This document shows, in pieces, positions 17,578 through 17,680 of a stretch of 64,000 nt of DNA. The translations under genes were made by a program, and so were the position numbers. This DNA comes from Klebsiella phage vB_Kpn_K54_rec1. The DNA lies in the sequence record PQ569687.1; one strand, 5' to 3'. The notes under the pieces are model-generated. The model saw nothing but the letters and a program-made list of their open reading frames with translations. It was not told where the DNA came from and ran no database searches. Numbering within the stretch: position 1 is the stretch's first letter; each line of letters starts with the position of its first letter.

Positions 17578-17680
17578 GGTGGGCATCAGTCCGATTCGAA
17601 CGAACCTCAGCAAGTATGCCAGTGAGCTACAAGGTGCGCACCCACTTCACCGGGCGTTTTCCAATTCGCCTTAGATACCC
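17578..17680 (-). tRNA. elongated tRNA-like gene (about 103 nt), anticodon undetermined
   Basis: Perfect 7-bp acceptor GGGTATC/GATGCCC, D-stem GGCG/CGCC, T-arm GTTCG-TTCGAAT-CGGAC, CCA encoded. About 48 nt lie between the D and T arms where 22-30 are expected. Confidence 0.45.

Follow-up and report, generated by a model that had tools for sequence, protein, structure and literature searches.

An interrupted class II tRNA-like cassette in the tRNA array of Klebsiella phage vB_Kpn_K54_rec1

Architecture of the 104-nucleotide element

Klebsiella phage vB_Kpn_K54_rec1 carries an array of tRNA genes, and the window analyzed here, a stretch of 64,000 nucleotides (nt) from sequence record PQ569687.1, contains within that array an element that resembles a class II tRNA with an enlarged anticodon loop. 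The element is read on the minus strand from 17680 to 17577, giving 104 nt including the encoded CCA (Table 1). From 5′ to 3′, its layout is GGGTATC TAA GGCG AATTGGAAAA CGCC C GGTGA AGTGGGTGCGCACC TTGTAGC TCACT GGCA TACT TGCT GAG GTTCG TTCGAAT CGGAC T GATGCCC A CCA. A tRNA-like gene with an acceptor, a D stem, a T arm, a CCA end, and a palindrome had been proposed in the initial annotation, and all of these are present, on the minus strand, with the palindrome GGTGCGCACC at 17642-17633. The length given there, 103 nt, becomes 104 nt once the last A of the CCA is counted, and the acceptor described as flawless does contain 7 base pairs (bp), one of which is a U4.G69 wobble. Single extra U residues lie at the acceptor/D and T/acceptor junctions and are drawn by ARAGORN as an eighth, U.U layer. 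The D and T stems are separated by 47 nt, earlier estimated at about 48 nt, which consist of C26 (1 nt), a 5-bp anticodon stem closing 21 nt, a variable arm of 4 bp and 4 nt, and GAG. When a T-loop motif, a 5-bp T stem, a 7-bp acceptor, NCCA, and a 4-bp D stem are required together, this combination is matched 16 times in the window and never in 100 dinucleotide shuffles, and thus the element is not a product of chance.

Standard tRNA finders pass over the element. It is called neither by ARAGORN at default settings, which reports 22 tRNAs in the window, nor by Rfam at the gathering threshold, which reports 21. There is no match to RF00005 even at E<=10, and the sole overlapping Rfam alignment is to tRNA-Sec, at 13.6 bits vs a threshold of 47. 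In the intron mode of ARAGORN at a 95% threshold, the element is instead reported as tRNA-Tyr(gta), a 90-nt class II tRNA with a 14-nt "intron," AGTGGGTGCGCACC. Once AGTGGGTGCGCACC is deleted in silico, default ARAGORN also calls a 90-nt class II tRNA-Tyr(gta). A standard program therefore folds a normal class II tRNA here solely when the 14 nt are ignored, and of the options raised in the initial annotation it is the tRNA with a small insertion, or disrupted gene, that these two results bear out. The body is best modeled as a complete class II tRNA with the anticodon GUA, interrupted by 14 nt. Among the features of a canonical tRNA, the acceptor, the discriminator, the CCA end, the D arm with G18G19, and the 5-bp T stem with a TTCRANY loop are all found. 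A 5-bp stem with a 7-nt anticodon loop is not, as the UUGUAGC loop appears only after deletion of the 14 nt, and the scores fall below the Rfam and default ARAGORN thresholds.

With the insertion, the anticodon loop grows from 7 nt to 21 nt, all closed by the stem GGUGA/UCACU. In the folded model the excess length sits in this loop, and the variable arm, which the initial annotation had suspected of being extended or unusual, is an ordinary class II arm (GGCA-TACT-TGCT). A fold constrained to the cloverleaf reaches -34.2 kcal/mol, only slightly above the unconstrained minimum of -35.8. In the best cloverleaf-compatible fold, the start of the insert, AGUGGGU, displaces GGUGA as the partner of (GC)UCACU, such that the first 5-7 nt of the insert, AGUGG(GU), serve as an alternative partner of the 3′ strand of the anticodon stem. 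Since the two 5′ strands are mutually exclusive and neither leaves a 7-nt loop, the transcribed RNA is predicted to be unable to present a normal anticodon loop. The 14-mer was also considered as a repeated motif and rejected as such, with one near match (16611-16598, 2 mismatches) that lies within chance expectation.

Table 1. Coordinates of the element and its parts, the adjoining tRNA units, and genes considered for tRNA repair.
Feature	Position	Strand	Basis or remark
Whole element: class II tRNA-like gene with ACCA	17577..17680	-	Sequence; ARAGORN -i -ps95 = tRNA-Tyr(gta) i(35,14); self-score of the element's covariance model (CM R1) 132.5 bits
Acceptor 5′ strand GGGTATC	17674..17680	-	Partner of 17581-17587
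D arm GGCG / AATTGGAAAA / CGCC, with G18G19	17653..17670	-	Sequence; CM alignments: like phage and T4 tRNA-Leu D arm
Anticodon stem 5′ strand GGTGA	17647..17651	-	ARAGORN fold; partner TCACT 17621-17625
14-nt insertion AGTGGGTGCGCACC	17633..17646	-	Between position 31 and the anticodon loop; holds palindrome GGTGCGCACC
Anticodon-loop-like heptamer TTGTAGC (U33, G34 U35 A36 = GUA, G37)	17626..17632	-	ARAGORN
Anticodon stem 3′ strand TCACT	17621..17625	-	ARAGORN fold
Class II variable arm GGCA-TACT-TGCT, then GAG	17606..17620	-	ARAGORN and folding
T arm GTTCG / TTCGAAT / CGGAC	17589..17605	-	Sequence
Acceptor 3′ strand GATGCCC (17587-17581), discriminator A and CCA (17580-17577)	17577..17587	-	Sequence
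Upstream neighbor tRNA-Glu(ttc) (17762-17687) and 6-nt spacer AATAAT	17681..17762	-	ARAGORN, Rfam, sequence
6-nt spacer AACAAT and downstream 81-nt non-canonical tRNA-Trp(cca)-like gene (17570-17490)	17490..17576	-	
Calcineurin-type metallophosphoesterase, adjoining RNA ligase	set 29185-31263	+	
T4 gp63/Rnl1-type RNA ligase	30286-31263	+	PF09511; phrog_562 E=1e-72
CCA-adding enzyme (PolyA_pol head and HD domain)	57545-58792	+	
RlaP-family nucleotidyltransferase	60842-61915	+	

Distribution, variation, and descent

The window is ~100% identical to Klebsiella phages of the genus Mydovirus (Vequintavirinae), such as vB_KpnM_VIK251, KpS8, and BIS47, and this places the locus outside the Felix O1-like context assumed for it earlier. 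By blastn against 50,697 phage records, the element is found in 25 GenBank phage records, all at least 99% identical and none with an RNA annotated at the element; divergent homologs beyond these copies are lacking in that set. Near-identical variants occur in two metagenome contigs (L078 and L085). The exact D-arm and T-arm patterns recover only BIS47 and Ro1 from IMG/VR. An insert-free ancestor was sought in IMG/VR and metagenomes with a gapped pattern allowing an insert of 0-30 nt, which returned only two near-identical variants. The single D-arm to T-arm pattern tried on 185,579 bacterial genomes has no match, and CM R1, the covariance model (CM) built from the element, finds nothing above 20 bits across 19 related loci. 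In NDO71 (Mydovirus) and SSE121 (Seunavirus), the CCA of tRNA-Glu runs directly into AACAATGTGCGGG, and thus the element is absent from both. VLCpiM5a fills the same slot with an unrelated module of 122 nt that is closed by a stem and has ACCA at its end, and GAP31 fills it with another, different tRNA-like pseudogene.

These comparisons also bear on whether the stretch is protein-coding or contains no gene at all, a reading we regard as barely credible. PQ569688 and OR472445 annotate a 129-nt coding sequence (CDS) for a 42-amino-acid (aa) "hypothetical protein" corresponding to window positions 17613-17485. However, this open reading frame (ORF) starts at a TTG in the variable arm and reads across the T arm and spacer and through the entire Trp-like RNA, whose stems covary; NDO71 lacks the ORF start, and the set of tRNA-like features is absent from the shuffled sequences. 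The 42-aa CDS is rejected as gene-caller filler. The "RNA ligase" that OY757067 places at this locus was likewise set aside: the feature table of that record (OY757067.1, L072) is out of register with its sequence, every CDS is marked pseudo, and the "RNA ligase" lies on the wrong strand, antisense to the tRNA genes. The genuine ligase gene is located at 30286-31263.

Few substitutions distinguish the copies. Of the three GenBank records at 99.1% identity, the one considered here, phage Mydo, carries G17584>A, which converts U4.G69 to U4-A69. In L078, G17608>T falls in the unpaired GAG. In L085, an apparently complete 145-kilobase phage contig, C17598>T (C56U) and A17595>G (A59G) change the T loop to TTTGAGT, and C56 is almost invariant in working tRNAs. 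Taken together, these substitutions, at a G.U pair converted to A-U, at an unpaired site, and at C56, hint at relaxed constraint. They amount to 4 in 104 nt of the element vs 5 in 309 nt of the four flanking tRNA or tRNA-like genes of the block, numbers too small for a rate test.

Much of the element fits bacterial tRNA-Tyr, including the in-register anticodon GUA, U33, a purine at position 37, A73, and the long variable arm. The hint of a tRNA for His in the initial annotation fails on this anticodon, and also because the phage already has a His(GUG)-like gene at 17225-17150. When IMG/VR was scanned with the acceptor strands and ACCA alone, 51 stretches were recovered, two of which are copies of the element (L007 and L008). 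The others are mostly chance matches, and the three real tRNAs among them (L027, L038, and L045) are all phage tRNA-Tyr(gta) genes whose acceptor and A73 are identical to those of the element. More broadly, bacterial class II tRNAs (Tyr GUA; Leu) share with it the 7-bp acceptor, A73, CCA, G18G19, TTCGAAT, the 4-bp/4-nt variable arm, and the 5-bp anticodon stem with U33-GUA-G37; they lack the 14 extra nt that give the 21-nt loop and the additional U on each side of the acceptor base. Compared with bacterial tRNA-Tyr in particular, the element has a D arm nearer to that of tRNA-Leu, and it scores under all Rfam thresholds. CM R1 gives 27.8 bits to T4 tRNA-Leu, 26.2 to the tRNA-Leu(tag) of the window, and 19.1 to its canonical tRNA-Tyr, whereas the element itself scores 132.5. 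A recent duplication of a resident tRNA was rejected on this ground, the best other tRNA in the window reaching 26 bits (Leu(tag)) and Tyr 19, vs 132 for the element against itself.

Expected fate of the transcript and alternative roles

The array lies on one strand, with units that end in CCA or in a closing stem and are separated by A/T-rich spacers of 5-7 nt (AAUAAU, AACAAU, and GAUAAU). Both spacers flanking the element are 6 nt, one fewer than the distance of 7 nt reported earlier. No terminator-like sites were seen on the minus strand between ~18100 and 15489. A canonical tRNA-Tyr lies at 18099-18010, 330 nt upstream of the element, and a tRNA-Leu(tag) is present as well, making the element redundant for decoding. 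The array is a mosaic, as phages with an identical block of Glu, element, Trp-like, Gln, and His-like units differ by whole-cassette swaps at Thr, Gly, Ser, Pro, and Leu. In comparisons of window positions 14800-20000 with L001, L011-L014, L072, L078, and L085, alleles at Thr, Gly, Ser, Pro, Leu, and Tyr are 10-40% divergent while adjoining cassettes are identical. An HNH endonuclease ORF of ~99 aa lies inside the array (16548-16252, minus strand; phrog_2255, E=3e-28), reaching tRNA-Lys, and a second HNH gene (PF13392) is found at 39208-39696. The HNH genes fit the cassette mosaicism of the array.

With moderate confidence, we read the element as a dispensable, interrupted, non-decoding tRNA cassette, which would be either a relic or a neutral passenger of cassette shuffling. 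It would be co-transcribed with its neighbors in a polycistronic tRNA precursor. From established tRNA-processing biology, and given an intact acceptor/T-arm stack and ACCA, RNase P would be expected to cut the 5′ end at G17680, and the 3′ end would be trimmed as for tRNAs, by RNase E and then exonucleases. The product would be a stable RNA of ~104 nt ending in CCA. A loop of 21 nt leaves no normal anticodon for the ribosome to read, and this RNA would thus not decode. The tRNA-like ends may nonetheless keep the neighboring genes correctly processed, so that as a cleaved spacer the element would be mildly useful, and this could be part of the reason for its persistence.

Several observations weigh against this account. 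All arms except the anticodon loop are intact, unlike in a long-decayed pseudogene. The element is not a recent copy of a resident tRNA, and thus a relic would require the import of a cassette that was already interrupted. Its origin is ambiguous, with a Tyr-like anticodon and acceptor and a Leu-like D arm. The block that bears the element is also too young for conservation to argue in either direction. Finally, the tRNA-repair genes of the phage make a tRNA-centered conflict with the host plausible, which leaves room for a function. The tRNA-like regulatory RNA suggested in the initial annotation is a conceivable but unsupported reading.

By analogy, the closest counterparts are RNA C and RNA D (species 1 and species 2) of phage T4, whose tRNA cluster encodes them as stable RNAs without a known role (PMC3014915; PMC9697503). 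As with the element, they lie on the tRNA strand inside a tRNA cluster with spacers of a few nt, and the element fits this type in its tRNA-like ends and its presumed inability to decode. RNA C further has a T arm of the tRNA type, and in ARAGORN its 3′ 95 nt fold into a class II tRNA carrying a small insert. In contrast to the T4 RNAs, the element is shorter, retains all four arms and a recognizable anticodon, and encodes an RNA that is stable only by prediction. Homology to T4 rnaC was rejected, since CM R1 gives it 11.7 bits, no better than ordinary T4 tRNAs (tRNA-Leu, 27.8).

Intron-containing tRNAs offer another comparison, since there, too, the anticodon loop is interrupted by a stretch whose removal gives a normal tRNA, as the intron mode of ARAGORN reports for the element. 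By this reasoning the element could be a working tRNA-Tyr from which the 14 nt are excised and the ends sealed by the Rnl1-type ligase of the phage, or in which a small hairpin is tolerated and GUA is read. Precise removal in silico does restore a tRNA-Tyr of default quality, and the phage encodes an Rnl1-type ligase with a phosphoesterase beside it (Table 1). In T4, broken anticodon loops are sealed by a ligase of this class. However, the introns of bacterial tRNAs belong to group I and exceed 200 nt, and we know of no short tRNA introns in bacteria or their phages. The 14-nt insert falls far below the size of a group I intron and has no Rfam intron match. It also departs from the bulge-helix-bulge introns of archaeal and eukaryal tRNAs, being located at 31/32 or 32/33 rather than 37/38. 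Two 3-nt bulges with a 4-bp helix cannot be drawn from the 21-nt loop, where manual 4-3-7-4-3 threading gives mismatches. To our knowledge, neither host nor phage has a splicing enzyme for such an insert, and a splicing endonuclease was not found. If a side hairpin projected from the 5′ edge of the loop, it would be expected to clash in the ribosomal decoding site, and the canonical tRNA-Tyr is already present upstream. A working tRNA-Tyr is, therefore, very doubtful.

Other unusual tRNA forms match the element only in part. tRNA-Sec (8/5) and the allo-tRNAs, which have 8/4 and 9/3 non-canonical cloverleafs (PMC5389517), resemble it in their long variable arm, their occurrence in phage tRNA clusters, their being missed by standard finders, and a possible eighth acceptor layer. 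tRNA-Sec (RF01852) and the allo-tRNAs are defined by an acceptor/T branch of 13 bp (8/5) or 12 bp (8/4, 9/3), a 6-bp D stem, and UCA or another anticodon held in a 7-nt loop. In the element, by contrast, the eighth layer is a U.U mismatch, the T stem has 5 bp, the D stem has 4 bp with a 10-nt loop, and it is the anticodon loop, rather than the acceptor/T branch, that is abnormal. tmRNA was rejected as a candidate, the tmRNA mode of ARAGORN giving a low-threshold "permuted" artefact that runs off the sequence, and the element has no Rfam match to tmRNA or to Y-RNA-like mimics.

A role apart from decoding may also be envisaged, in which the processed 104-nt RNA is a non-decoding tRNA mimic that acts as a decoy or competitive inhibitor of a host factor recognizing tRNA-Tyr-like tRNAs (with QUN anticodons). 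The RNA would keep the tRNA L-shape and a UGUA motif in its enlarged loop, and candidate targets would be a tRNA-targeting nuclease of the retron-Eco7 PtuAB type or the colicin E5 type, or a synthetase. Given A73 and the Leu-like D arm, it might be charged by leucyl-tRNA synthetase, which ignores the anticodon. In favor of such a decoy, the features for processing and protein recognition are all intact except the loop, the tRNA-repair genes of the window indicate pressure on tRNA integrity, and structural selection is evident in further non-canonical tRNA-like RNAs of the array (the 109-nt family and the D stem of the Trp-like gene, described below). Depletion of tRNA-Tyr is a documented anti-phage mechanism that is countered by phage tRNA-Tyr (PMC11555353), and phage tRNAs have been proposed to evade anticodon nucleases (PMC10264068). 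The T5 and SP15 tRNA-Tyr genes that oppose retron-Eco7 (PMC11555353) and the anticodon-loop variants (PMC10264068) share with the element a phage-encoded body of Tyr type and RNA-repair genes in the same phage. Those anti-retron tRNAs act by decoding, however, and a change of anticodon abolishes rescue (PMC11555353), whereas the element is predicted to be unable to present a normal anticodon loop. Further objections are that there is no conservation outside one near-identical block and that the insertion lacks covariation. Sister phages do without the element, the C56U of one variant weakens the tRNA elbow, and a stoichiometric decoy would be a weak answer to a catalytic nuclease. A complementary target of more than 10 nt is also absent from the window, and the idea of an antisense small RNA was rejected on the same finding. 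Overall, we consider a decoy unlikely.

A more elaborate form of this idea is that the element is a purpose-built, CCA-tailed tRNA-Tyr mimic, deployed together with the ligase and CCA-adding enzyme as an anti-defense decoy for a nuclease, a modifying enzyme, or a charging enzyme; in a variant of it, cleavage and Rnl1-type ligation would remove the insert, which would then be the first short intervening sequence of a phage tRNA. This proposal is speculative and, in our judgment, decidedly improbable. Among the ORFs scanned, none was identified as a polynucleotide kinase. The phage also encodes a Sir2-family protein (32248-33024) and a NADAR-domain protein (38270-38779), both on the plus strand, and these may be linked to NAD/ADP-ribose-based defense or counter-defense.

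Other non-canonical tRNA-like genes and their implications

Beyond the interrupted cassette, the array contains several tRNA-shaped genes that depart from the canonical form. The Trp-like gene immediately downstream has a 6-bp D stem with a 3-nt loop and is without G18G19. Its D stem covaries, reading TTGCTC/GAGCAA in the window, TTGCAA/TTGCAA in NDO71, and TTGCAG/CTGCAA in SSE121. The gene is found in phages that have no canonical tRNA-Trp and is missing where a canonical one exists, and judging from these sequences it is possibly a working tRNA-Trp. The His(GUG)-like gene on the minus strand combines an odd D arm with a T loop reading AGCGATA, has a homolog at L009:2516-2591, and is kept in SSE121. 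It is missed by default ARAGORN and by Rfam, and ARAGORN at -ps85 reports it as tRNA-His.

A further family of tRNA-like RNAs, of 100-109 nt, is represented in the window at 19438-19546 (minus strand) and elsewhere at L009:187-295, L010:1261-1369, L016:4701-4809, L015:5380-5479, L021:1714-1813, and L022:6892-6991. Its members combine a 7-bp acceptor and a T arm with a 6-bp D stem whose loop is 4 nt, and most of them end in NCCA. Where an anticodon arm would be expected they have a short hairpin, its loop 5-8 nt long, and conserved GAAAAUA...GAAUACAUAGG surrounds a variable hairpin. The family extends across several Vequintavirinae lineages, with compensatory changes at 8 of 23 predicted pairs and none broken. 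It has no Rfam match at E<=10 and is not called by default ARAGORN. On this comparative evidence, the 109-nt family is better supported as a functional RNA than the 104-nt element.

Other units of the array are unusual in length or arm structure. Two genes on the minus strand, at 16620-16710 and 19085-19166, are both missed by default ARAGORN and comprise a 91-nt tRNA gene of Ser type with the anticodon loop TTTGAAA and an 82-nt tRNA gene found by Rfam only, at 34.9 bits. The tRNA-Asn(gtt) at 15974-16058 (minus strand, 85 nt) has, unusually for Asn, a long variable arm (GAGCATTAGCTC). In a Seunavirus-type contig, a tRNA-Lys(ttt)-like gene (L016:7461-7546) carries ~10 extra nt as a GAC-GCAA-GTC hairpin in its D loop and is reported as "tRNA-???" by default ARAGORN, making it another tRNA of the subfamily with an inserted hairpin. 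The "spacers" between tRNAs can themselves be structured, as those at 17341-17483 and 17763-17844 (minus strand), L002:1591-1712, and L010:2747-2883 are multi-branched modules closed by a terminal stem. Examples of such stems are GGGGGCG...CGCCCTC followed by ACC and, in VLCpiM5a, a stem of 8-9 bp followed by ACCA.

The element is thus a further case of the tRNA-derived, non-decoding RNAs or pseudo-tRNAs of phage tRNA arrays, and every record leaves it unannotated. Should it be no more than an interrupted cassette, its value is mainly practical. Since tRNA-shaped genes of these phages are missed by ARAGORN and Rfam and are overwritten by spurious small ORFs, tRNA counts and codon-compensation analyses will be off for these Klebsiella phages, which are candidates for therapy. 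If it is functional, it would represent an RNA decoy in the contest between phage and host for tRNAs. In either case, the tRNA region of the Vequintavirinae, with its better-supported and unannotated 109-nt family and its Trp-like and His-like genes, is well suited to the study of non-canonical tRNAs.

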